Source of the DNA: Spirochaetales bacterium
Lineage (GTDB): Bacteria > Spirochaetota > GWE2-31-10
Length of the DNA: 64,000 bases
NCBI GenBank assembly: GCA_017624275.1
Contig: JAGANG010000078.1
Location: 45,118 to 109,117 of the forward strand
Direction of reading: 5' to 3'
In this document: positions 16,795-37,349 of the stretch, in pieces
How positions within the stretch are numbered: position 1 is the first letter of the stretch
Layout: each line of letters starts with the position of its first letter
Translations under genes and position numbers: made by a program
Notes under the pieces: generated by a model
What the model was told of the DNA's origin: nothing
The model's database searches: none
What the model saw: only the letters and a program-made list of their open reading frames with translations

Positions 16795-17108
16795 AATAGG
16801 TAATGATGAGTATTTAACCTTTTATTTTTTTTTTGTCAATAAAAAAAGATTATTTTTCTTAATAAGATTTATGAAGGGCAAGAATATTCCTGCAATTTAT
16901 CCCCAAAATTAACTTTTTCTCCGGTTGAGTCAGCAAATTTAGTTTAGGCTAAAACACCGTTTAAATAGCATTTCACGAGGCAAAATAAAAAAACTTCAAT
17001 TTTTTTCGTCAAACATGCAATGAAAAAGAAGAAAAGTTCTTTATATATAACGGAGAAATAATTGTTTTTGCACTACAAAAGCAAATTATTGTTTCCTAAT
17101 TTATATTT

Positions 17109-18059
17109 ATGGGAAAAATTATGACAAAAGAAAAAACAAATCATAATTACAAGGACTCGGTCTTTGTTGACCTGTTTGCACACGATGTGACAGCGAAAGA
17201 GAATTTCATTTCGCTCTACAACGCTTTACACGGTACGAATCTTGACGCAAAGACAACGGATGTTCAGCCGGTGATGTTAGAACGTGTACTTTACATGAAG
17301 TATTACAACGATATTGCCATGCTCATTGACGGTAAGATTGTGATTCTGATTGAACATCAATCGACAATCAATCAAAATATGCCCTTTCGGTTTCTGGAAT
17401 ACATCGCAAGAATTTATGAGAAAATCACCACAAAAGACGAGAAGTTCGGGCGTAAATTGGTGAAGTTGCCGATTCCGGAATTCTACGTTTTTTACAACGG
17501 AAAGGACGATTATCCGACAGAAAGTGTGATGAAATTGTCCGACGCATTCATGCAACTTGACGGCGAGTTGAAAAATCAGCTTGAAAATGCAAATTATCCG
17601 CTTGAAATATCCGTGAAAGTAGTTAATATTAACATGGATAAGGAAAACCCGATTTTGAAGCGTTGCGAGACATTAAAGCAATATTCAAAATTTATTGAAC
17701 AGGTGCGTTACAATATTGAGAATGTTGTTCCTGAGCCGTTTACGACTGCGATAAAAGAGGCAATCAAGAAAGGTTTTCTTTCTGATTATTTGAACCGAAA
17801 ATCAACGGAGGTACAAAATATGTTACTAGCAGAATATGATTATGATACAGACATTGCTGTTCAACGAAAAGAAGCCTTTGAAGATGGTATCGCAATCGGT
17901 GAAAAAGTAGGTGAAGAGCGTGGCATTTCTATCGGTTTGTCGCAGGGTGCACATCAAAAAGCTATTGAAACAGCTAGAAATGCATTAACAATGAATTTAT
18001 CTATAGAACAAGTTGCTACTCTTACCGGGCTAGCACCTGAGGAAATCGAAAAGCTTTAA
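17109..18059 (+). CDS. Rpn-family recombination-promoting nuclease / putative transposase (TIGR01784-like)
   Basis: 316 aa. N-terminal PD-(D/E)XK-like nuclease region and C-terminal repetitive tail (DGIAIGEKVGEERGISIG) typical of the multi-copy Rpn/YhgA family described in Treponema. Confidence 0.75.
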   Translation: MGKIMTKEKTNHNYKDSVFVDLFAHDVTAKENFISLYNALHGTNLDAKTTDVQPVMLERVLYMKYYNDIAMLIDGKIVILIEHQSTINQNMPFRFLEYIARIYEKITTKDEKFGRKLVKLPIPEFYVFYNGKDDYPTESVMKLSDAFMQLDGELKNQLENANYPLEISVKVVNINMDKENPILKRCETLKQYSKFIEQVRYNIENVVPEPFTTAIKEAIKKGFLSDYLNRKSTEVQNMLLAEYDYDTDIAVQRKEAFEDGIAIGEKVGEERGISIGLSQGAHQKAIETARNALTMNLSIEQVATLTGLAPEEIEKL

Positions 18060-19190
18060 AACAATAAAGGAAAACATAGATTCCAAAACAAGTTCGGAAG
18101 ACAGGAGCCATACGGATTGGTTCGACAAGCTTACGCTCGGTATTGAACTACCAAATGTTTTAGCGTCTTTTTCTCTTGGGAGTTATAGAGGGTATTCTCT
18201 TTTCATCGCAAAAAAGAGAATACCCTCTAACTTTTACCAACTTTGAACCAAAGTTGCATTTTGAGGCGGACTTGTCCGCAAATTGTCTTTAAACCCGGCG
18301 ACAGCCGAAGCCTTAAACAACAAAAACGCTTCAATGTCGGCTATGCCGACAAATAAAGCTCCAAACCTGCAAAGGTTTATAAAACTTTAAACCAAAGTTG
18401 GCATTTTAACGCCGGGCTACCCCGGCAAAACGTAGAATAACCGAGCGTAAGCCCACTTTCTATTAAAGTTTAGTTTTATGGCGGCGTGCCGAGGAATGGG
18501 GAGGTCATAGGAGGGGAAAACCTGCGGCCTTGCAAAGAGCCGGTGTTCCCCTCCTAAAGATTACACGTTTTGAACCCAAAACGATCTTTAAATGTCGGCT
18601 ATGCCGACAAATAAAGCTCCAAACCTGCAAAGGTTTATAAAACTTTAAACCAAAGTTTGCATTTTAAATGCCGGTATCGCCGGCGAATTGCCACACGGAT
18701 TCGAAATGTCTAACGACATTTCATGAAGTGAAAAAAGTAAGAATAAACTACAAATGTCAGAAGCGTTCTTTTCTTTTAGGGGTATAAGGGGAACTTTTCT
18801 TTTTATCGCAAAAAAGAAAAGCTCCCCTTTAATATTCGTTGTTCTTAGAACAACAAAAACGCTTTAGGGCAGGCTTGTCCGGCAAAACCGATTAAAACCA
18901 AAATGGTTTTATAAAGTTTTGAACCCAAAACGATTTTTTAATGCCTGCCGTCGGCAGGCAAAAGGAACTTTAAACCCAAGTGGGTTTATAAAACTTTGAA
19001 CTAAAGTTGTATTAAAAATGCCTGCCGAAGGCAGGCAAAACGTAGAATATCCGAGCGTAAGCCCTCTACTCCACTGTGGAGAACATCTAAAGTATAATCA
19101 TAGAATTGACAGTTTTTTTTTTTTTTTTACATTCTCTTTGCTTTTCCCCAGCCTTTACTATACTCAAGGGAGAAAAGCGAGGAGTTTAAA
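18060..19190. repeat. mosaic of short repeat and hairpin families
   Basis: Contains a 17-bp-stem hairpin (agagggtattctctttt...aaaagagaataccctct), palindrome arrays (aaactttgaaccaaagtt / gcattttaaatgc / gccggcatcgccggc / tgtcggctatgccgaca), a GGAGGGGAA...TTCCCCTCC hairpin and a ccgagcgtaagccc motif. All recur elsewhere in 18-28 kb in both orientations. Confidence 0.8.
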
Positions 19191-19192
19191 AT

Positions 19193-19927
19193 ATGGCAAA
19201 TAACAATCAATGGCAGGTCTACCTGCGACCGAACACACTCACAAAGGACAACGACAAAGACTGTATCGCCGATGTCCACCTAAACGGTGCGACTCTTACA
19301 AATGAAGACGTAGCACAAAGAATCGTCAGCGAACGAAGCGAATACCGCAAAGACACAATCATCAACATCCTAAATTTACGTGACAATGCAGTAAAGGCAT
19401 TCATTCAAGAATGCTCAAGTTTCCGTGACGGCTTGGTACAAATCACCCCACGTGTCAGCGGAGTATGGGAAAACGAAGCATCTGCATTCGACCCGGCAGT
19501 ACATAAAAGAACAGTAGACCTTGTACCGACAGCAGATCTGCGAAACACATTAGACGCAATATCTGTAAAAGTCATGGGAACGACATCCGCCGCTGCCCGA
19601 ATATCTGCAATCACAGACAGTGCAACGGGACTGAAAGACGGTACAATCACCATCGGAGATGACATCATCATCGACGGAGAAAAAATCAAAATCACAGACG
19701 AAACAGACCAAAATCAAGGTGTATTCATTGTAGATGCAACCGGCACAGAACACCGTGTAACACGCCGACTAACAGTAAACAAACCGAGCCAAATAATCGC
19801 CCGTGTACCGTCATCAGTACCAGCAGGAGCCGTGACAGTAAAAATCAAAACGAACTACAGCGGAAACAAAGCACCACTTTCTGCCATAAGGGAAATATCC
19901 TACGGCTATGAATGCACGGCGGTCTGA
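19193..19927 (+). CDS. HU-like DNA-binding domain protein with DUF4469-like C-terminal domain (Bacteroidetes-type)
   Basis: 244 aa. N-terminus (MANNNQWQVYL...LNGATLTNEDVAQRI...) resembles the Bacteroidetes 'HU family DNA-binding protein' family. GC content is clearly higher than the flanking chromosome. Confidence 0.7.
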   Translation: MANNNQWQVYLRPNTLTKDNDKDCIADVHLNGATLTNEDVAQRIVSERSEYRKDTIINILNLRDNAVKAFIQECSSFRDGLVQITPRVSGVWENEASAFDPAVHKRTVDLVPTADLRNTLDAISVKVMGTTSAAARISAITDSATGLKDGTITIGDDIIIDGEKIKITDETDQNQGVFIVDATGTEHRVTRRLTVNKPSQIIARVPSSVPAGAVTVKIKTNYSGNKAPLSAIREISYGYECTAV

Positions 19928-19947
19928 CTATCTGAAGTACACAGTAT

Positions 19948-20040
19948 GCCTTATGTGAGACCATCACATAAGGTGACCCCCGATGTACAGGACGCTCTAT
20001 GTGAGACCCTCACATAAGACGACCCCTGACATACAAGACG
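19948..20040 (+). repeat. two tandem about-46-nt hairpin units
   Basis: ccttatgtgagaccatcacataaggtgacccccgatgtacaggacg and ctctatgtgagaccctcacataagacgacccctgacatacaagacg. Each contains the inverted repeat tatgtgag...tcacata. Confidence 0.7.
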
Positions 20041-20596
20041 AACGACATCAAGCGTGTCCAAGGAGGGGAGAGGTTATAGGAGAGGGGAACCTTCGGACAT
20101 CGCAACTTTGAGATGGTTCCCCTCTCCTAAAAATTACCAACTTTGAACCCAAAACGATTTTTTAATGCCTGCCTTCGGCAGGCAAAAGGAACTTTAAACC
20201 TTCGTGGTTTAAAAAAGCTTTGAACAAAGCTTTAGCCCGGTGCCGGCATTGCCGGCGAATTGCCACACGGATTCGAAATGTCTAACGACATTTCATGAAG
20301 TGAAAAAAGTGAGAATGAACCACCGCAAGGAGTATGTTTTTTCTCTTTGGGGTTAAAGGGGGACTTCTCTTTTTGATTACAAAAAAAGAGAAATCCCCCT
20401 TAAAAACCTCGTTGTTCTCTGAACAACAAAAAAACTTCAGGGCAGGCTTGCCTGCAAAAGAAGCCTTGAACCTTGCAAAGGTTTAAAAAAACTTTGAACC
20501 AAAGTTGCATCTTAAATGCCGGCATCGCCGGCAAGCCGAAGCCTTAAACCCAGCATGGGTTTAAAAAAAATATTTGTAATAAAAAAAGGAGTACCC
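20041..20596. repeat. mosaic repeat block upstream of the LRR lipoprotein gene
   Basis: Contains the GGAGAGGGGAACC...GGTTCCCCTCTCC hairpin, the gaaatgtctaacgacatttc hairpin, the gggggacttctcttttt/aaaaagagaaatccccc hairpin and palindrome arrays. Its last about 190 nt are roughly 90% identical to 23337..23527. Confidence 0.8.
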
Positions 20597-22972
20597 ATGA
20601 AAAGATTCTTAATCTTGCCGTTAACATTCTTAATGTTAACATCCACCATCATCGGTTGTACGGAAGTACAAGAAAACACAGAAAACACACCCACAACCGA
20701 CGAACAAACTAAAGAGGAAGAAACACCGACAAAAGCCTCTTACACAATAGAACATTACAAACAAAACATTGATGACGACGAATACACCCTTGTAATTGCC
20801 GATACAGAAAACAAAAACGGCAAAATCGAAAATTATACATCAGCAATTGCAAAAGATTACGACGGATTTACATCACAAAAACCGGAACAGCAGAAAATTG
20901 CAGCAGACGGAAGTACAACGGTAAAAATCTATTACGACAGAAAAAAAATCACATTGACATTGAACCTATACGGCGGAAAAGGTGACAAAAGTATTACCGG
21001 CAAATACGGCGAGGCAGTAATCAACGCAACTGTTCCCACAAAGACAGACAGCCTTTTCAACGGCTGGGAACCGGCACTTCCTGCGACATTTCCCCTTGTG
21101 CCCACATTACATACAGCTGTATGGGTAAAAGGAAGCGACACCGTAACAGCAGACGGATGTACATATACAAAAGATATGAAAACTCTGCTGACGGCACAAA
21201 AAGACATTACAACGGCAACAATCCCCGACGGCGTAACTAAAATCGGTGAAAATGCATTTAAAGATTGTACCGCATTGACAAATATAACAATCCCGAACAG
21301 CGTGACAGAAATCGGCTTCTTCACATTTTCAGGTTGCGAAAACTTAGAATACAACGAATACAGCAACGCATTATATATCGGTAACGCCGACAATCCTTAT
21401 CTGATTCTGGTAAAAGCAAAAGACACATCGATAACATCTTGCGAAATCAACAACGACACAAAAATAATCTTATACGCAGCCTTTGACGGATGTAAAAATG
21501 TAGAAACCTTGGCAATCGGCGACGGCATTACATCATTCGACAATCTACCCATAACGCCGGCATTAAAAGAAGTCACAATCGGTAAAGGAATAACTTCAAT
21601 TTGTGATTATGCATTTTTTAATTGCAAGAACCTAACAAATGTAACACTCCCTGACAATGTGACAAAAATCGGAGAATCAGCATTCTCTTGTTGCGACAAC
21701 TTGGTAAATATATCAATCCCCGAAAGCGTAACTGAAATCGGAGACTATGCATTCTACGGCTGTGCAAGCTTGCCGGATATAACAATTCCCGACAACGTGA
21801 CGGAACTCGGAAACTATACTTTCTACGGTTGTAACAGCTTGGCGAGTATAACAATTCCCGACAACGTAACTGAAATCGGAAATCATGTTTTCTACGGTTG
21901 TGACAACTTGGCAAATATAACAATTCCCGACAACGTAACGGAAATCGGAACTCATGCATTCTACGGCTGTGCAAGCTTGGCAAATATAACAATCCCCGAC
22001 AACGTAACAGAAATCGGAAGCCATGCATTCTACAGTTGTGACAAATTGGCAAGTATAACGATTCCCGACAATGTAACTGAAATCAATGACTATACATTCT
22101 CTTGTTGTGACAACTTGGTAAATATATCAATCCCGGACAACGTGACAAAAATCGGAGAATATGCATTCTACGGCTGTGCAAGTTTGACAGACATGACAAT
22201 CCCCGACAGTGTAACTGAAATCGGTTTCAGAGCATTCAACGAGTGCAGTAACCTTACAAGTGTGACAATCGGTAACAGCGTAACTTTTATCGGTTACGAA
22301 GCATTCGAGAATTGCAGTAACTTAGAAAACGTATATATTTTCGATTTAGAAGCTTGGTGTAATATTGAGTTTGAATCCTCTGCAAATCCGCTAAGTAACG
22401 GAGCAAATTTATATTTAAACGGTAACCTGGTAAAAGATTTAGTAATCCCCGACAGCGTAGCTGAAATAAGAGGTGCTTTCGACGGTTGTTCAAGCTTAGA
22501 AAGTGTAATCATTCCTGACGGCAAGACTTCTACCGGTTGGTTCCGTTATTGCAGTAACTTAACAAGTGTTTCCATTCCGGACAGTGTAACTGAAATCAGT
22601 GGCTATGCATTCGAAGGTTGCAGTAGTTTAACAAGCGTAACAATTCCTGATAGCGTGATTACTATCGGCTACTATGCGTTCAGAGGTTGCTCTAGCCTAA
22701 TAAGCATAACAATCCCGGACGGTGTGACTGAAATCTGGAGCAGAGCATTCGAAAAGTGCAGTAGACTAACAAGTGTAATAATCCCTGACAAAGTAACTGA
22801 AATCGGTTTCAGTGCATTCAACGAGTGCAGTAACCTTACAAGTGTGACATTTAAAGATACTGTCGGCTGGAAATATGGCTGGGAAGAGATAGAAATCGAC
22901 GTAACAGATCCGGCACAAAACGCAATTTATTTAAAAGAGACTTATCACGGTAACTCTTGGTACAAAAAATAA
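20597..22972 (+). CDS. BspA-like leucine-rich-repeat surface lipoprotein
   Basis: 791 aa (ATG at 20597 behind RBS aaaggag). Lipoprotein signal MKRFLILPLTFLMLTSTIIGC. At least 20 copies of a 23-aa repeat IPDNVTEIGxYAFYGCxSLxxITIP (LRR_5/BspA type). Confidence 0.85.
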   Translation: MKRFLILPLTFLMLTSTIIGCTEVQENTENTPTTDEQTKEEETPTKASYTIEHYKQNIDDDEYTLVIADTENKNGKIENYTSAIAKDYDGFTSQKPEQQKIAADGSTTVKIYYDRKKITLTLNLYGGKGDKSITGKYGEAVINATVPTKTDSLFNGWEPALPATFPLVPTLHTAVWVKGSDTVTADGCTYTKDMKTLLTAQKDITTATIPDGVTKIGENAFKDCTALTNITIPNSVTEIGFFTFSGCENLEYNEYSNALYIGNADNPYLILVKAKDTSITSCEINNDTKIILYAAFDGCKNVETLAIGDGITSFDNLPITPALKEVTIGKGITSICDYAFFNCKNLTNVTLPDNVTKIGESAFSCCDNLVNISIPESVTEIGDYAFYGCASLPDITIPDNVTELGNYTFYGCNSLASITIPDNVTEIGNHVFYGCDNLANITIPDNVTEIGTHAFYGCASLANITIPDNVTEIGSHAFYSCDKLASITIPDNVTEINDYTFSCCDNLVNISIPDNVTKIGEYAFYGCASLTDMTIPDSVTEIGFRAFNECSNLTSVTIGNSVTFIGYEAFENCSNLENVYIFDLEAWCNIEFESSANPLSNGANLYLNGNLVKDLVIPDSVAEIRGAFDGCSSLESVIIPDGKTSTGWFRYCSNLTSVSIPDSVTEISGYAFEGCSSLTSVTIPDSVITIGYYAFRGCSSLISITIPDGVTEIWSRAFEKCSRLTSVIIPDKVTEIGFSAFNECSNLTSVTFKDTVGWKYGWEEIEIDVTDPAQNAIYLKETYHGNSWYKK
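21700..22210 (+). repeat. near-identical 69-bp tandem DNA repeats encoding the LRR units
   Basis: Repeated units aatataacaattcccgacaacgtaac(t/g)gaaatcggaa...ttctacggctgtgcaagcttggca in tandem. They also produce artefactual minus-strand ORFs. Confidence 0.85.
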
Positions 22973-23527
22973 AGTGAGAACGAACCACCGCAAGGAGTAT
23001 GTTTTTTCTCTTTGGGGTTAAAGGGGGACTTCTCTTTTTGATTACAAAAAAAGAGAAATCCCCCTTAAAAACCTCGTTGTTTCACTTGGTGTTTACAGAC
23101 GTAAACACTTCGTTCGTTCACGCAGTGAACTCACCACTGTTCTCTGAACAACAAAAAAGCTTTAGGGCAGGCTTACGCTCGGTATTTAACTGACGTTAAA
23201 TACTCCGTTCGTTCTACGAACTCACCGTTGCACAGTGACCGAGAGAACGAACTCCCGCTCCAAGCTTGCCAAGGAATGGGGAGGTCATAGGAGGGGAAAA
23301 CCTGCGGCCTGCAAAGAGCCGGTGTTCCCCTCCTAAAAATCCGTTGTTCTTAGAACAACAAAAAAGCTTCAGGGCAGGCTTGCCTGCAAAAGAAGCCTTG
23401 AACCTTGCAAAGGTTCGAAAAAGCTTTGAACCAAAGTTGCATTTTAAATGCCGGCATCGCCGGCAAAAGAAGCCTTAAACCCAAGTGGGTTTATAAAAAA
23501 ATATTTATTTTAAAAAGGAGTCATCTC
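22973..23527. repeat. mosaic repeat block upstream of the second lipoprotein gene
   Basis: Same hairpin and palindrome families as 20041..20596. Includes an 85-bp element (23068..23152) with an inverted copy at 27419..27503. Its 3' about 190 nt duplicate 20405..20596. Confidence 0.8.
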
Positions 23528-25327
23528 ATGAAAAGACTTTTAATTTTATTAACATTATTAATGTTTACTTTACCAAACTGCACAAACACTTCCGAAGACA
23601 GTGAAAACATATTCAACAATAACGAAAACACCACCCAAGACAAAACCGAAGAGGAAGAAGAACAAAAAGAAATCACGTTGACATCAAGCAAATTAACAAA
23701 TGTCACAATCAAAACTCCGCCGGTAAAAACAGAATACACCGCCGGCGAAACATTCGCCCCCGCAGGACTTTATTTGCAGGCAACATATACAGACACATAC
23801 TCCGACGGCACGCAAAAGGAAAACATCGAATTTATAGATTGCGAAACGGGAGCGGTCACATTCACAGGTACAGACTTTGCAGAGGCAGGCACAGCGACCG
23901 TCACAGTGACATACAAAGGGAAAAATGTCACATTCAGCGTAAAGGTAACAGAAAAGCCGGCATTCCCAACAATAGGAAACTACAAAATCACAGGCGAAGA
24001 CATCATAATAAGCGACTTTTCGGACATCACGGTATCGGGAAGCAGTGACGCAGAGTTCAATATATCTTTTCTCGCAACAAAACAGACACAGCTTTCACTG
24101 CCGGAAATAAGCAACATCGCAAAGGCTTTCCCAAACGCTACAATAACAGCAGATGATAAGATTTCATATACAATAAACGGCGGAACAAAAAGGGGAGATA
24201 TACCTGCTGATATTTTCACTTATAATACTTTAGTAGATAATGAATTTAAGGATTTGACAACATTTGCAATTGAAGGAAAAATATTAATTGATGAAACAAC
24301 AGATGTTAATTCCACTGAACACTATGATAATAGACCTGTAAAAATAAGAACTATTACGTTGGACAACGGCACGACTCTTAATATAACAGGAAAATATCTT
24401 GATATCGGACGAAATCGTTTTAAAGTTACTAACAATGCAGTTGTTAATCTGTCTGATGATATAGAAATTACAACATATGATAATAGTGAAAATTCTAGTC
24501 CAACTCATGCAAATATTACTTCCGACATCGCTAATACGCAATTTGACGCATTGGGCCTCACCACCCCAAACTTTGATTTAGCAATCTCTGATGAAAATTT
24601 ATATAATTTCGCTCACAATATTCTTGATAGATATGATAGTTTCGATAAGACAAAGCATAAATTAAAATCATCCTCTTATTTTAATGGTAATTTGAATAAT
24701 TCTACAAATGTTTTATATACAGGAGATGCTCTAGTATCAGAAGAAGATCGTCCAACTTTAAAGTTTTCTAGTGTTAAATATATTTCTGATAAGAATAAGT
24801 TGATAACAATGTATAATCTTGTAATAAATAATAATATTCCTGTAGAGGATAATACTAATCTAGATGTGACTGCAGATTTTACAAATATTGTATTTGAAGG
24901 AGATTTTTCTAATTTTCATAATAAAGGAAGTTTTGAAGGCATATCTCATTTTATGGGTAATCCGATGCAAGGTGTTTCAAATTCTAATGGATATGTAAAA
25001 GTTGATTACGTTGATACTAATGTAGGTGAAATATTTGGAGATATTATAGATCTTACCGACTTGTCAGATGATATAATGTATGATATAGGTTCTAATAGAA
25101 ATATGATGTTAGGAGGAGCTGCTGATGTTATAGGTATCTTTAGAGATGAGAAACAACAAGTTGCGGCTGAAAATATACGTAAGAAAGGTAGTAACCTTGG
25201 TTTTAAGCCTGTTTATTTGCAAGATAATCCTAAGCATAAAAATGAGTTTATTAAAACCCTTGCAGATTGGGAAGTGGAATATAATTCTTCGAAAAAACTT
25301 CAATCTTCAAATACTGCTCAACAGTAA
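23528..25327 (+). CDS. surface lipoprotein with N-terminal Ig-like domain and AT-rich C-terminal region
   Basis: 599 aa (ATG at 23528 behind RBS aaaggag). Lipobox LLMFTLPNC. Residues about 50-190 are GC-rich and look Ig-like (TVTVTYKGKNVTFSVKV). From about nt 24180 the composition switches to AT-rich unrelated sequence. Confidence 0.75.
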   Translation: MKRLLILLTLLMFTLPNCTNTSEDSENIFNNNENTTQDKTEEEEEQKEITLTSSKLTNVTIKTPPVKTEYTAGETFAPAGLYLQATYTDTYSDGTQKENIEFIDCETGAVTFTGTDFAEAGTATVTVTYKGKNVTFSVKVTEKPAFPTIGNYKITGEDIIISDFSDITVSGSSDAEFNISFLATKQTQLSLPEISNIAKAFPNATITADDKISYTINGGTKRGDIPADIFTYNTLVDNEFKDLTTFAIEGKILIDETTDVNSTEHYDNRPVKIRTITLDNGTTLNITGKYLDIGRNRFKVTNNAVVNLSDDIEITTYDNSENSSPTHANITSDIANTQFDALGLTTPNFDLAISDENLYNFAHNILDRYDSFDKTKHKLKSSSYFNGNLNNSTNVLYTGDALVSEEDRPTLKFSSVKYISDKNKLITMYNLVINNNIPVEDNTNLDVTADFTNIVFEGDFSNFHNKGSFEGISHFMGNPMQGVSNSNGYVKVDYVDTNVGEIFGDIIDLTDLSDDIMYDIGSNRNMMLGGAADVIGIFRDEKQQVAAENIRKKGSNLGFKPVYLQDNPKHKNEFIKTLADWEVEYNSSKKLQSSNTAQQ

Positions 25328-25394
25328 CCCTGTAACAGCATTTTAATTATACATACACGCCTGCGGGACTTTTTCGCCCCCGGGCTTTTTTTAT

Positions 25395-26100
25395 GTCCTC
25401 TCCCCCTTTAGCAGGAAGGCTCTTTTCGTCGGCATAGCCGACACAGAGCTAAAGCAGACTTTAAGGTGCAACGGCTTTCGCAGGGTTCGGGGACAATTTG
25501 TCCGCCTACGGCGGACGGCGAGGCTAAAGCTTTCTTCAAAGCAAAACCACGAGGGTTTAAAGTTCCTTTTGCAGGCAAAGCCTGCATTTAGGAATCGTTT
25601 TGGGTTCAAAACGTGTAAATCTTTAGGAGAGGGGAACCATCTCAAAGTTGCGATGTCCGAAGGTTCCCCTCTCCTATAACCTCTCCCTTCCTTGGACACG
25701 CTTGGAGTGGGAGTTCATTCTCACTTCTTGAAATCTCGTAGACGATTGGTGCATTTCGACTACGCTCAATGACCGTTTTTCTTTTATTTTCTGTTTGGTG
25801 AGCCACGGTGAATGTACGTAGTACATGAACGAAATGTTTACTTTAGTAAACATCGAGCGTAAGCCACGGTGAGTTCGTAGAACGAACGGAGTATTTCCGA
25901 TAGGAAATACCGAGAGAAAGCTTGTCGAACCAATCAGTGTGGCTCCTGTCTTCCGAACTTGTTTCGGAATCTCTACTTCCACAGGCTTTTAGATGTCTAC
26001 GGAATATTCTTTACAGCAATGTACATTTTTTATATAAAGCTATCGGAAATGCTTAAGTTTCAGGCGGCGTCTCCCAAACTCAATAATTAATTGAAACAGG
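25395..26100. repeat. mosaic repeat block, reverse-orientation copies
   Basis: Reverse complements of the 18-23.5 kb families (tcgtcggcatagccgaca, gcaggcaaagcctgc, TTTAGGAGAGGGGAACC...GGTTCCCCTCTCC hairpin) plus an about-200-bp unit (25746..25980) repeated directly at 27628..27862. Confidence 0.8.
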
Positions 26101-26111
26101 GAGGCTTGTCT

Positions 26112-26213
26112 ATGACTATAGAATTAGTTTTATCAGTAGTGACTTGTATTGCTACGGTAACTGGTACAGTTATAGCATTGCTCTCTTTCCTAAAAAAGAA
26201 AGATAAAGAGTAA
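26112..26213 (+). CDS. small hydrophobic peptide (type-I-toxin-like), 33 aa
   Basis: MTIELVLSVVTCIATVTGTVIALLSFLKKKDKE. Single TM helix plus charged tail, RBS gggagg 7 nt upstream. Not in the supplied track because it is under 60 aa. Confidence 0.35.
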   Translation: MTIELVLSVVTCIATVTGTVIALLSFLKKKDKE

Positions 26214-26329
26214 AAAATAAAGCCGCCAAAATGACTCGAAACTACTTTTGACGGCTCTTAGCTAAAATCGTGGAGACGACCAAATGAACTTGGGCATTTC
26301 CTTTTTTTAATATACACCTACTAATTCTT

Positions 26330-26560
26330 TTTTGCAAGAACGTTTTCTACTTCCTTTTTTTATATCTCCATGACTACGAAGTATTTAACGTCAGTCATTT
26401 GATGTTTTCTTACGAAAACATCGAGCGTAAGCCACGGTGAGTTCGTAGAACGAACGGAGTATTTCCGATTAGGAAATACCGAACGAGCTTGTCGAAGTAA
26501 TCCGGTGTGGCTCCTGTCTTCCGACTTGTTTCGGAATCTCTACTTCGAAAGGCTTTTTAT
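26330..26560. repeat. third partial copy of the about-200-bp repeat unit
   Basis: catcgagcgtaagccacggtgagttcgtagaacgaacggagtatttccgattaggaaataccga...cttgtttcggaatctctacttcg, matching 25850..25980 and 27735..27850. Confidence 0.75.
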
Positions 26561-26634
26561 TATTGCTGCTGCGTTTGTTTCTTCTAAGACTTTTTGATAT
26601 AATATAGTAATAATTTTTACTTGGAGGTAGAACT

Positions 26635-26850
26635 ATGTCATTAGCGATATTGGAACAAAAAATAGCTACTTTACCAACACTATGTGTTACTGAACTTGAA
26701 GATTATGTTGATTTTCTAATTCAGAAATATTGTACAAATAAAAAAGACGATGAAACAGAATCATATTTTGGAGCTTTAAAAAATAAAATATCATTTATTT
26801 CTTCTGATTTCGATGAGCCTCTCGAAGAAGATTTTAAGGATTATATGTAA
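26635..26850 (+). CDS. DUF2281-like type II antitoxin
   Basis: 71 aa. ATLPTLCVTELEDYVDFLIQKY resembles DUF2281 antitoxins, and the C-terminus is acidic. RBS ggagg. Directly precedes a PIN-domain ORF. Confidence 0.55.
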   Translation: MSLAILEQKIATLPTLCVTELEDYVDFLIQKYCTNKKDDETESYFGALKNKISFISSDFDEPLEEDFKDYM

Positions 26851-27231
26851 TGGAAAAATATCTTTTTAGATACACATGCAATTCTTTGGTATTTTCAAGG
26901 AAATGAAAATCTACCAAAGAAAATACGTACAATTATAGAATCTAAATCATGTTTTTACAGCATTATATCTTTTTGGGAAATTGCAATAAAGCAAAAGTTA
27001 GGCAAATTGGATTCATCTTTTTCAATCCAAGAACTTGAATCCATGTGTACAAAAGCAAATATACAAATTGCTCCTATCACATCAAAATCCATAGAAACAA
27101 CAAAATTTTTGCCTTTAATTCACAGAGACCCTTTCGACCGACTTTTAATTGCTCAAGCAAAAAACTTAAACTTAATATTAATTACCAAAGACATGTTCAT
27201 TCCGCAATACGATGTGAAAATTTTATGGTAA
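26851..27231 (+). pseudogene. vapC: PIN-domain VapC-like toxin gene whose start codon is out of frame
   Basis: The frame from 26851 encodes (W)KNIFLDTHAILWYFQGNENLP...DPFDRLLIAQAKNLNLILITKD, with the PIN signature motifs. It has no in-frame ATG. An ATG at 26850 is +1 out of frame, just upstream of a 5-A run (26854..26858). Confidence 0.6.
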
Positions 27232-27239
27232 ACAGCCCG

Positions 27240-27870
27240 AGGAATTTTTTATTTTCTAAACCTTTGCAAGGTTTGGGGATTCGGCTTGCAGACTGCGATG
27301 GCTGTCGCCGGGTTCAGGGGCATATTGTCCACCTACGGCGGACGGCGGTGCTAAAGCTTTCTTCAAAGCTTTTTTAAACCACGTGGGTTTAAAGTTCCTT
27401 TTGCAGGCAAAGCCTGCCTCATAGCGTTTTTGTTGTTCAGAGAACAGTGGTGAGTTCACAGCGTGAACGAACGAAGTGTTTACGTCTGTAAACACCAAGT
27501 GAAACAACGAGGTTTTAAGGGGGGCTTTTCTTTTTTGCGATAAAAAGAAAAGTTCCCCTTTGACCCCTAAAAGAAAAGAACGCTCCTTTAGGTGAGTTCA
27601 TTTTCACTTTTTAATATCTCATGCGGTTGGTGCATTTCGACTACGCTCAATGACCGTTTTTCTTTTATTTTCTGGTTGGTGAGCCACGGTGAATGTACGT
27701 AGTACATGAACGAAATGTTTACTTTAGTAAACATCGAGCGTAAGCCACGGTGAGTTCGTAGAACGAACGGAGTATTTCCGATTAGGAAATACCGAGAGAA
27801 AGCTTGTCGAAGTAATCCGGAGTGACTTCTGTCATTCCGACTTGTTTCGGAATGTTTTTGCACTACTAAA
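27240..27870. repeat. mosaic repeat block, reverse-orientation copies
   Basis: Contains gtccacctacggcggac, gcaggcaaagcctgc, the inverted 85-bp element (27419..27503), the ggggggcttttctttttt/aaaaagaaaagttcccc hairpin and the direct about-200-bp unit (27628..27862). Confidence 0.8.
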
Positions 27871-27994
27871 AATAAAGATGATTGTTTCACGTGAAACATG
27901 AATATTTTTACATAAATTATTATTTAGTTGGAAAGTAATATTAAAAAATATATAATAGGGAATAAAATTAAAAGCACACTTTGGAGGGTTTTGA

Positions 27995-28333
27995 ATGAGT
28001 GAAGAATTAAGAACAGAGCGTAGAGTATCAGTGGAAATGGTTCCGGAAGATTTAAGAGAGTTTAATTTTTCTGCAGGATTATTTCATGAAAAACAAGCTG
28101 AGCTTGCAAATCTTAGTAAGGGCGGAATCAGCTTTTTAACGGATGATGTAGATAATCATTATGAAATAGGACAAAAGTTAAAAATTATGTTTTCTTCCAG
28201 AAAAATAAAGCTTTCTGGAAAAATTGTTTATGTTTATCGTGTAAATGATACAAAAATGAAAATCGGAATGTTTTTATCTCCGTCTGCCGAGTTAGATGAA
28301 ATAAAAGAAATTATTGATAATATATCAGAATAA
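27995..28333 (+). CDS. PilZ domain protein
   Basis: 112 aa with the c-di-GMP-binding PilZ motifs RTERR (RxxxR) and NLSKGGISF (D/NxSxGG). Confidence 0.7.
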   Translation: MSEELRTERRVSVEMVPEDLREFNFSAGLFHEKQAELANLSKGGISFLTDDVDNHYEIGQKLKIMFSSRKIKLSGKIVYVYRVNDTKMKIGMFLSPSAELDEIKEIIDNISE

Positions 28334-33959: not shown

Positions 33960-34155
33960 GGTCTAGCCGTATATCAGAGACCAGTTATGTTACGGTGAGT
34001 GAAATATAGGTTGCTGATAATGATTGTTGTTTACATTCACTTTCGGAATTTTCTTTATGGAAAATCCTATCGTTCATGTAAACGGTTTCGTTTTCGACTT
34101 TCTGAAGAAAGTCTGCAAATCGAAACCAGAGACCAGTTATGCTACGGTGAGTAGA
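33960..34155 (+). promoter_or_regulatory. two 26-nt direct repeats in the 5' leader of the 34221 operon
   Basis: tctgcaaa...cagagaccagttatgttacggtgagt (33975..34003) and tctgcaaa...cagagaccagttatgctacggtgagt (34123..34152), one mismatch. They lie between the XRE gene and the operon. Confidence 0.5.
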
Positions 34156-36057: not shown

Positions 36058-36579
36058 ATGAAAATAGGATTTAAAGAATTAAACAAAATTAATAAGCACT
36101 TAAATAAGTACTTAAAAAAGTCCGGAAAGGAAATTGGAAAAATTATTGATAAATACGGTAAAGATATAAGTAAAATTGTAGTGGAAGAAGGCGGAAAAAT
36201 CATTGAATATCTAAAAGAAAAAGCCAGTGATATTGATGAAGCAATTGATAATGCCGGCGGACTTGAAAATGTATTAAAAACACTGTGGAATACAGAAGAA
36301 GAAGTAGTTGATGTTTTAACATTAGAAATGATGATTTCTTGGTGTAAACAAAATTTGTCTTCTGATACAGAAAGAGCCAGAGCTGTAATCTTACTTTTGA
36401 AACCGTCTCAATTTCCGGATGATTCAAAAATTGATGACTGTCGTTTTTGTTGCTTTGTAGGTTTTCTTGATAATAACGATGACATTATTGATTCAAAGAA
36501 GAAGTATTTTTACTCCGATACTATGGATTTGAACTTGAAAGAAACTTTCGGTGATAAAGATATGATTATTTTGAATTAA
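36058..36579 (+). CDS. hypothetical protein, paralog family member (C-terminal FGDKDMIILN)
   Basis: 173 aa, RBS aaaggag. N-terminal lysine-rich repeats. C-terminal about 60 aa homologous to 36591 and 36942. Confidence 0.55.
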   Translation: MKIGFKELNKINKHLNKYLKKSGKEIGKIIDKYGKDISKIVVEEGGKIIEYLKEKASDIDEAIDNAGGLENVLKTLWNTEEEVVDVLTLEMMISWCKQNLSSDTERARAVILLLKPSQFPDDSKIDDCRFCCFVGFLDNNDDIIDSKKKYFYSDTMDLNLKETFGDKDMIILN

Positions 36580-36590
36580 AGGAGAGTGAT

Positions 36591-36938
36591 ATGGGATTAT
36601 TAGATTTTATATTTGATATATTTGATGATTTATGGAAAACATTGTGTCGTTTTGGTAAAACAATAAAAAAGGCAATTATTTCATTTACAAAAAATATTGT
36701 ATCTTTTTTCAAAGATCCGAAACGATTTAAAAAACTCGCTAAAACTAAAAAGATTTTGGCAACGACAATAAAAGAAAATTTAGACAACGGAAATGTTAAC
36801 GTGATAAATTGTCTTTATGATACAGAAAAAGAACAAGTTATTGAATTGGAAGAAAATGCTATAGGATACGAAAACGGAGAAATGGATCCAGAACTTGCTC
36901 GTAACTTTGGCAATAAAGACATGATTATTTTGCAATAA
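36591..36938 (+). CDS. hypothetical protein, paralog family member (C-terminal NFGNKDMIILQ)
   Basis: 115 aa, RBS aaaggag. Amphipathic N-terminus. Shares about 90 aa with 36942. Confidence 0.55.
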   Translation: MGLLDFIFDIFDDLWKTLCRFGKTIKKAIISFTKNIVSFFKDPKRFKKLAKTKKILATTIKENLDNGNVNVINCLYDTEKEQVIELEENAIGYENGEMDPELARNFGNKDMIILQ

Positions 36939-36941
36939 GGA

Positions 36942-37349
36942 ATGGGTATGAAAATGGAAAATATAATTACTACTGTTGTTTGGACTGTTATCGGAGCTGT
37001 AGCTGTCGGTTTAATTGGAAGCTTAATATATTTTAGAGCAAAGAAAAATCCTCTGGCTATGTTGAAAGCTAATGCAATAGAAGTGGGAGTGATAAAATTT
37101 CAAGATATTATTGCTTTTTTCAAAAATCCGGCATGTCTTGACACTCTTAAGAAAAATAAAAATCTTCTTGCTGTAGCAATTAGAGAAGAAGAAGCTGACG
37201 GTACTATATTTGTACAGGCTTGTCTTTATGATGAAGAAAAAGAAAAAGTCATTGATATGGAGAATTCTTTTATTGTCTACAAATCAAAGCATATGGATGA
37301 TGAATTAACAAAAAACTTCGGTAATAAAGACATGATTGTTTTGCAATAA
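36942..37349 (+). CDS. hypothetical membrane protein, paralog family member (C-terminal NFGNKDMIVLQ)
   Basis: 135 aa, N-terminal TM helix. Tandem paralog of 36591. Confidence 0.55.
   Translation: MGMKMENIITTVVWTVIGAVAVGLIGSLIYFRAKKNPLAMLKANAIEVGVIKFQDIIAFFKNPACLDTLKKNKNLLAVAIREEEADGTIFVQACLYDEEKEKVIDMENSFIVYKSKHMDDELTKNFGNKDMIVLQ

Follow-up and report, generated by a model that had tools for sequence, protein, structure and literature searches.

The DNA shared upstream of two spirochaetal lipoprotein genes is probably, for the most part, a locally recombining chain of hairpin repeats

Two lipoprotein genes lie next to each other in a 64,000-nt stretch of a Spirochaetales bacterium (contig JAGANG010000078.1; this whole stretch is referred to here as the window). 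One encodes a leucine-rich repeat (LRR) protein and the other an immunoglobulin-like (Ig-like) protein, and almost the same 190 nt of DNA stand before both. Why should two such genes begin alike? An earlier, sequence-only reading of this DNA took the duplicated region as a single expression module with a promoter, driving interchangeable surface-protein cassettes, and suggested co-regulation or recombination-based switching of surface antigens. The analysis described here points to a different answer: the shared 190 nt are probably, in the main, a hairpin chain that belongs to a lineage-specific family of small interspersed intergenic repeats and recombines locally.

Global alignment of positions 20405-20605 with positions 23337-23535 gave 179 identical columns of 205 (87.3%, with 10 gap columns), in agreement with the match of about 90% that had been claimed. 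The same pair was recovered by MAFFT and by a repeat search, and the two copies, called A (before the LRR gene) and B (before the Ig-like gene), matched each other in blastn-short with E=7.6e-53. The real extent of the similarity is ~20387-20640 versus ~23320-23570; it continues past the Shine-Dalgarno (SD) site and the ATG to ~45 nt into the signal peptide, where it ends. The 3' end of both copies consists of AAAGGAGT, a spacer of 4-6 nt and ATGAAAAGA. Along this stretch, identity between the copies is 92.9% (117/126) from the first hairpin, D, through the second GC-rich hairpin, 88% over the entire hairpin chain, 61% in the A/T-rich leader and 75% over the first 48 nt of the coding sequence, and falls to the background level of 57% over the following 150 nt. 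The homology into the signal peptide is real but modest, because other signal peptides in the compared spirochaete DNA are 52-65% identical to the LRR/Ig pair over the same 48 nt. Both N-termini look like spirochaetal lipoprotein signal peptides. The downstream coding sequences had been described as unrelated, and the mature proteins confirm this (BLASTP E=2.6; Pfam LRR_5 versus Big_3). The basic observation of the sequence-only reading, shared upstream DNA, SD site, ATG and signal-peptide start on two unrelated mature proteins, is therefore sound. One further duplication had gone unreported: a 114-nt block directly 5' of chain A, the second copy of which is set off from the chain B module by ~260 nt of other repeats (Table 1).

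About 160 of the shared 190 nt consist of six hairpins with perfect stems, which A-rich linkers join head to tail into the chain D-G-P-X-G-Y. Three classes of hairpin were distinguished, one GC-rich (G) and two AT-rich (P/Q/Y and X/W), and the chains obey a simple grammar in which G is followed by a Y-class and then by an X-class unit, head to tail, often with a D hairpin in first place. Across 28 aligned array copies, the X/W-class hairpin was followed by a GC hairpin 11-14 nt later in every case, and the G hairpin by the start of a Y-class unit in 22. Units are regularly spaced (23-30 nt), and all units of a chain point one way. The linkers have a strand bias, with A always enriched on the same strand (AT skew +0.25), and the succession X/W, G, Y-class runs in one direction. 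Chains that run from D to Y carry either no internal G/Y-class/X-class set or one, of the P-X, Q-W or Y-X type. All units are hairpins of 13-21 nt located in spacers, with none inside a Pfam-supported gene, and their stems are flanked by TTAAAT or AAAA. No terminal inverted repeats were found at the chain ends, D and Y each being self-palindromic and not inverted copies of one another. Tandem Repeats Finder did not detect the chains, the units of which are too divergent.

The pairing of these hairpins has been preserved as their sequence changed. The 28 GC hairpins, which were chosen by the adjoining X/W unit and not by their own pairing, hold at least eight different stems (GCAGGC, GCCGGC, GTCGGC, GCGGAC, GCCGAC, GCAAGC, GCCTGCC and GCCGGG), and 90.8% of their cells are paired. 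Compensatory changes were present in five of the seven base pairs (18 cells), a result matched by none of 500 shuffles, and slid controls also fell far below it. The palindromy of the GC hairpin is thus maintained, and the molecule in which it matters may be RNA or single-stranded DNA. RNA folding of the shared region was far above that of shuffled controls (z from -4.5 to -10), with the SD site unpaired; chain A gave z=-4.5, likewise with an unpaired SD site, and chain B z=-5.2.

The two chains are part of a much larger set. Units of the D, G, P, X and Y types fill every spacer of an island of ~10 kb (18.06-27.9 kb of the window), in mosaic order and in both orientations, alongside two hairpin modules of greater length and a second family of small repeats. 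The island spacers are 550-1130 nt long, each with many hairpins, and hairpin density is 20/kb within them versus 8/kb elsewhere in the window. Chains are in direct orientation to the left of the Ig-like gene and inverted to the right of it. The island is chromosomal and lies between dnaX, with a cluster of tRNA and signal recognition particle (SRP) RNA genes, and PilZ/ParA genes; its own genes are Transposase_31 or PDDEXK_2, HU-like, LRR, Big_3, DUF2281 and PIN. A more divergent third copy of the module had been placed before the HU-like gene, and a copy does exist there (18838-19037), although as a different combination of units, D-G-Q-W-G-Y-X-G. It sits upstream of a separate promoter-like site, and chains of its type also precede the LRR gene in strains L060, L064, L066, L069 and L071.

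The clearest evidence on what is exchanged and what stays in place comes from other strains, which were reached via a spurious module-ORF (open reading frame) protein query (three matches) and via homologues of the Ig-like protein. Nine LRR loci (the window and eight others) and seven Ig loci (the window and six others) were compared. The housekeeping flanks of L062, L064 and L066, compared at full length, are 97.7-99% identical to those of the window, and L069-L071 have the same flanking gene order; all loci were therefore treated as one species. Upstream of the LRR gene, the chain is D-G-P-X-G-Y in the window and in L059 (with a degraded D), D-G-Q-W-G-Y in five strains, D-G-Y in one and W-G-Y in one. 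Upstream of the Ig-like gene, it is D-G-P-X-G-Y in the window only, D-G-Q-W-G-Y in three strains, D-G-Y-X-G-Y in one and D-G-Y in two. The leader and signal peptide, on the other hand, are gene-specific and constant for the LRR and Ig genes in all strain loci. Because variable chains precede fixed genes, the chains are the exchangeable part and move between LRR and Ig positions. In line with this, the closest match to one strain's LRR chain is another strain's Ig chain (84%). Measured over a fixed 190 nt, the identity between the LRR and Ig upstream regions is highest in the window (87%) among seven strains, the other six giving 57-82%. This is suggestive of a recent local gene conversion in the window strain, for which seven strains are no proof. 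Recombination at the locus, as had been proposed, is active. Its direction is the reverse of one module driving interchangeable cassettes: genes, leaders and signal peptides are fixed, and the chain is swapped.

Beyond the window, a search pattern built on the X unit and its linker gave multi-contig matches only in two Spirochaetota metagenome-assembled genomes (MAGs), one of them faecal, and single chance matches elsewhere. The strict pattern occurs at 8 sites on 6 contigs of one MAG and on 3 contigs of the other. These chains are ~80% identical to those of the window and lie mostly just past the 3' ends of genes or between convergent genes, next to genes for a methyltransferase, a rhodanese, an HD-domain protein, DUF763, a nitroreductase and a solute symporter; in one MAG, a chain is inverted relative to the HU-like gene, compared with the window. 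From these positions and from the occurrence of both orientations, it follows that the units are independent of lipoprotein genes, of promoters and of any one orientation. Searches of JGI metagenomes returned no match to the gene-proximal pattern and one short contig for the family-level pattern, and the lineage is therefore nearly absent from them. Viral contigs yielded one chance match, within a coding region. Rfam searches at gathering and E-value thresholds returned only tRNAs, SRP RNA and sub-threshold generic hairpins, with no family that fits the chains, and no account of repeats like these in Treponema or other spirochaetes came up in a literature search. The family thus appears to be undescribed, although it is of a familiar kind of element. 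Whether the module occurs with these two genes alone, a question raised together with the original claim, has a divided answer. The hairpin units are not unique to them, whereas the leader and signal-peptide part was found only there; a representative-protein search with the translated leader and signal peptide, a 55-aa query of low sensitivity, returned the LRR cluster only and no third gene.

An alternative explanation is that the shared region holds a promoter or operator and that each gene is transcribed separately under common control, like the Borrelia erp/ospE/ospF genes with their upstream homology box (UHB). A Y-class hairpin end, then AAAAAAATATTT and then the SD site precede both genes in all nine LRR and seven Ig loci, the A/T-rich leader contains weak -10-like hexamers such as AATATT, the similarity runs on into the signal peptide, and the boxA and boxC modules of pneumococcus can stimulate downstream genes (PMC3049150). 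However, a scan for the sigma-70 consensus, and for that consensus alone, found no plus-strand site in 20300-20596 or 23000-23527, and by eye no acceptable -35 stands before AATATT or any other leader -10. Furthermore, the internal units vary by strain, some strains having D-G-Y only, and the same units occur elsewhere past 3' ends, between convergent genes and in both orientations. The promoter proposed as part of the shared module was therefore not borne out, and we consider this explanation unlikely, although a weak or activator-dependent promoter may lie in the conserved leader. The best sigma-70-like site of the island stands upstream of the HU-like gene and is a candidate promoter for an HU-LRR-Ig transcript; no plus-strand terminator-like site was predicted from the HU-like gene to the end of the Ig-like gene, after which a weak candidate terminator follows (Table 1). 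The spacer of this site is a T16 tract, and phase variation at the tract was rejected because its length is invariant in four strains and in one other species (L026). Another possibility is that one miniature mobile element, with a preference for sites before genes, inserted twice independently and so gave rise to the two copies. The family is dispersed, nested insertion of repeats is typical of such families (PMC3049150), and one clean insertion signature was found, a 56-nt element within a D hairpin (23082-23141) with a 4-bp TGTT duplication, the site being uninterrupted at 20411-20427 and in L066, and filled in L062 and, inverted, at 27434-27500. Whole chains, in contrast, have neither terminal inverted repeats nor target duplications, and orthologous sites differ by whole internal units, not by presence or absence of an element. 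The similarity also passes beyond the chain into leader and coding sequence, which an inserted element would not explain, and independent insertion is accordingly an improbable origin for the pair.

Least probable of all, in our judgement, is that the repeats are a programmed antigen-switching machinery, in which recombination or inversion at the chains moves surface-protein segments behind one expression site. Several features invite such a reading: the lipoprotein genes are flanked by chain copies, direct as well as inverted (for example, 20049-20201 versus 25552-25704), a gene for an Rpn-like nuclease stands at the island edge, and the Ig-like protein combines a constant N-terminus with a C-terminal part that is hypervariable among strains. 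Among 49 alleles, residues 1-215 are conserved at 91-98% and residues 220-599 at only 25-78%; in strains with ~98% identical flanks, identity in the variable part ranges from 82% down to ~30% over part of its length, and some alleles are mosaic. Against this, no donor, silent or partial copies of the variable region were found in the 64-kb window or within 6-10 kb on each side of the Ig gene in three other strains, and the constant part gives way to the variable one near residue 220, which is within the gene and away from the shared module. Contigs that encode exactly the proteins of the window all belong to one clone; eight contigs of this clone, from seven samples, are 99.99-100% identical across the arrays, with no variants within the clone, and inversion between the inverted repeats would put no gene behind a promoter. 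The earlier suggestion of surface-antigen diversification thus holds as far as strain-variable proteins and active recombination are concerned, but the breakpoint is within the gene; switching itself found no support in silent cassettes or within-clone variants. On present evidence, both promoter function and programmed switching are unproven and the less likely accounts. A diversity-generating retroelement was likewise rejected as the source of the variation in the Ig-like protein, since residues 220-599 are too broad a target, no template copy is nearby and no reverse transcriptase is among the island genes. The predicted fold of this protein (pLDDT 81) recovered only the N-terminal Ig domain, and the model weakly resembles Bacteroides Ig+LRR surface proteins (TM 0.12-0.17).

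A locally recombining repeat family would account for the two upstream regions in the following way. Chains occupy all spacers of a strain-variable island adjoining a tRNA cluster, and recombination among similar chains, by gene conversion or unequal exchange, would swap chain variants and leave the genes in place. A recent exchange in the window strain would have left both genes with the D-G-P-X-G-Y variant and therefore with 87-93% identity, and the similarity of leader, SD site and first ~15 codons would be a separate and older one between the two gene 5' ends. A transcript from the promoter-like site before the HU-like gene would include the chains as long 5' or intercistronic spacers, and there their stacked stem-loops may affect mRNA stability or processing alike for both genes, as has been proposed for repetitive extragenic palindromic (REP) and BOX elements. 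At the DNA level, they would supply the homology that keeps the island recombining. We also considered a more far-reaching version, in which the chains on either side of every island gene serve a local diversification system as recombination scaffolds, with the Rpn-like PD-(D/E)XK nuclease, whose gene lies at the island edge, working on them; this seems improbable to us. An integron cassette array was set aside, as the island has no integrase and its spacers hold many hairpins and not one attC. The YhgA-like gene was also rejected as an analogue of a REP-associated tyrosine transposase (RAYT): in a related MAG, the gene is closed off from the chain by a terminator of its own, and elsewhere most chains do not have a gene of this kind beside them.

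Several observations count against the account of local recombination among dispersed repeats. The remaining 54 kb of the window contain no chains, which bears on how widely the family is distributed in its own species beyond the island. A clear match of chain type within a genome was seen in the window strain alone, and with seven strains the evidence for gene conversion is suggestive and not statistical. In all strains, the Y-ending chain stops ~30 nt before the SD site of the LRR and Ig genes, and so constant an end could reflect a local function, an unusual promoter included, and not passive presence. Co-transcription of the HU-like, LRR and Ig genes would have a single basis, the absence of predicted terminators. 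Finally, no REP-type transposase, terminal inverted repeats or target duplications were found for whole chains that would explain the spread of the family.

Among known repeats, the chains appear closest in architecture to BOX-type composite repeats, with bacterial interspersed mosaic elements (BIMEs) and REPs also among the best analogues. BOX elements of Streptococcus pneumoniae and S. suis consist of boxA, a variable number of boxB and boxC; they insert into one another, form stem-loops when transcribed and may affect co-transcribed genes (PMC3049150). The chains resemble them as small intergenic interspersed repeats composed of several kinds of module, in which the ends stay the same and the interior varies, with nested elements and stem-loop folds, and with length and composition that differ between strains at the same site (here at nine LRR and seven Ig loci). 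They differ in that the units are hairpins of 14-21 nt versus BOX modules of ~45-60 nt, in having three hairpin classes in fixed order and in lacking the terminal inverted repeats, similar to insertion sequence ends, of BOX; the host is a spirochaete and not a streptococcus, and no sequence relation is expected. REPs are described, in PMC2817692 and PMC3733652, as short extragenic palindromes of about 20-40 nt in regularly spaced clusters with compensatory pairing, and with proposed roles in mRNA stabilisation and protein binding; PMC2817692 gives a dispersed copy number that is usually >100 per genome, and PMC3733652 a GTAG or CGTC tetranucleotide tagging the palindrome end. Short extragenic palindromes, regular spacing and compensatory pairing are seen here too, as in the REPs and BIMEs of enterobacteria and pseudomonads. 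In contrast, the REPs of a BIME alternate in orientation and the units here all point the same way; no GTAG or CGTC tag stands beside the stems, GTAG being present only near 18431 and 19042, in each case 5 nt after the final hairpin of a chain, and no Y1 transposase (RAYT) gene is among the island genes.

Two further systems invite comparison because surface-protein genes are involved. In Borrelia, the UHB has been defined as a promoter/operator region; it is carried by cp32 prophage plasmids and has many paralogues. Its literature for B. burgdorferi (ospE/ospF/erp) is cited by title in PMC10016077. Common to both cases are spirochaete lipoprotein genes with unrelated mature parts, shared upstream DNA (here 87%) and leader peptide (75%), and recombination; the present case differs in comprising two chromosomal genes, in that the shared DNA is mostly dispersed hairpin repeats and in that no promoter was identified. 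Neisseria intergenic mosaic elements (NIMEs) have units of 50-150 bp that lie between inverted repeats of 20 bp, the dRS3 sequences, into which phage can integrate. The island may be likened to NIMEs and to minimal mobile elements in its mosaic repeat arrays around surface-protein genes and its variable content between conserved flanking genes, although no bounding repeat like dRS3 was seen.

Table 1. Features of the shared regions, their hairpin units and the surrounding island (positions in the window)
Feature	Position	Strand	Basis or remark
Shared region, copy A: hairpin chain, leader, SD, ATG, first ~45 nt of LRR lipoprotein gene	20387..20640	+	alignments, blastn
Shared region, copy B: same parts before Ig-like lipoprotein gene	23320..23570	+	alignments, blastn
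Chain A: D 20411-20427, G 20442-20455, P 20469-20483, X 20490-20506, G 20517-20533, Y 20544-20564	20411..20564	+	hairpin map
Chain B: D 23343-23359, G 23374-23387, P 23400-23416, X 23424-23436, G 23449-23465, Y 23476-23493	23343..23493	+	hairpin map
Unit D			GTTGTTCnnnGAACAAC
Unit G, first in chain			GCAGGCttGCCTGC
Unit P			AACCTTgcaAAGGTT
Unit X			AACTTTGaacCAAAGTT
Unit G, second in chain			TGCCGGCatcGCCGGCA
Unit Y			TAAACCCAnnTGGGTTTA
LRR-specific A/T-rich leader aaaaaaatatttgtaataaaaaaaggagtaccc, SD AAAGGAGT 20585-20592, ATG 20597	20565..20599	+	kept in nine LRR loci
Ig-specific leader taaaaaaatatttattttaaaaaggagtcatctc, SD 23514-23521, ATG 23528	23494..23530	+	kept in seven Ig loci
BspA-type LRR lipoprotein gene, 791 aa, putative signal peptide MKRFLILPLTFLMLTSTIIGC	20597..22972	+	Pfam LRR_5 E=3.8e-152; putative lipobox seen by eye
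Big_3 Ig-like lipoprotein gene, 599 aa, putative signal peptide MKRLLILLTLLMFTLPNC	23528..25327	+	Pfam
114-nt block with long hairpin, directly 5' of chain A	20303..20416	+	98% identical to 22968-23081
Second copy of 114-nt block, starting at LRR stop codon	22968..23081	+	98% identical to 20303-20416
Other repeat modules, ~260 nt, between 114-nt block and chain B; long hairpin 23263-23342	23082..23342	+	
Third-copy chain D-G-Q-W-G-Y-X-G, upstream of HU-like gene	18838..19037	+	hairpin map
Two further chains in HU-upstream spacer, X-G..G-P-X-G and W-G-P-X-G	18238..18671	+	
Chain G-Y-X-G, distal half of HU-LRR spacer	20166..20256	+	
Inverted-orientation chain and long hairpin downstream of Ig-like gene	25428..25704	-	inverted repeat of 20049-20201
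Inverted-orientation chain and long hairpin downstream of PIN gene	27258..27587	-	inverted repeats of 18759-18887, 20182-20236, 23048-23174
YhgA/Rpn-like nuclease gene (Transposase_31), left edge of island	17109..18059	+	PDDEXK_2 gene in its place in other strains
Best sigma-70-like site in island, TTGACA-16-TACATT, spacer a T16 run	19106..19133	+	upstream of HU-like gene 19193-19927
Imperfect hairpin then U7 after Ig-like gene, weak candidate terminator	25358..25393	+	dG -13.7, z -1

The island also differs between strains in its genes. From the tRNA/SRP RNA cluster to the PilZ/ParA genes (16800-28000), gene content varies among the conspecific strains L062, L064, L066, L069, L070 and L071; L066 is without the HU-like gene, the DUF2281/PIN pair is missing in three strains, and the LRR protein ranges from 493 to 814 aa. 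In the window, an additional T in a T run close to the start shifts the reading frame of this pair's PIN toxin gene (26849-27231), which is intact (126 aa) in L062, L064 and L071. A 33-aa hydrophobic ORF, MTIELVLSVVTCIATVTGTVIALLSFLKKKDKE (26112-26213), was called in six of seven strains, with two copies in L071, and could encode a type I toxin or some other small membrane peptide. The ~100-aa ORFs inside the right-hand repeats had no Pfam matches. The second small repeat family (ACGGTGAGT... type) is present in the island at 23175-23262, 25800-25915, 26400-26480 and 27690-27795, with one copy outside it, at 33975-34153, flanked by a direct repeat of ~25 nt, GAGACCAGTTATGYTACGGTGAGT. Immediately 3' of the HU-like gene, a 46-nt unit is repeated 1.9 times (19952-20040), each copy forming a hairpin of 8-10 bp (TATGTGAG...CTCACATA). 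At 36058-37349, three tandem small genes (173, 115 and 135 aa) have a common C-terminal end, ...NFGNKDMIILQ. Short-read metagenome assemblies break within chains, and most contigs that carry the LRR or the Ig-like gene stop within one, at a length of only 2-3 kb.

In practical terms, repeats of this kind break short-read assemblies, and the surface genes between them usually end up on contigs of ~2 kb. Strains with ~98% identical flanks differ in gene content, in spacers and in the outer two-thirds of a lipoprotein, which makes the island a natural site to study host-driven diversification. If the chains were indeed scaffolds for the edge-encoded nuclease, the exchange of spacers and of surface-protein alleles would far outpace that in the rest of the genome, and the island would represent an integrase-free cassette system in gut spirochaetes. 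More generally, what appears to be a shared promoter of two surface-protein genes can be a by-product of dispersed, locally recombining hairpin repeats, which changes how such duplications should be read in genome scans. The window also brings to notice a family of repeats, simple in its grammar, from a lineage of gut spirochaetes that is uncultured.

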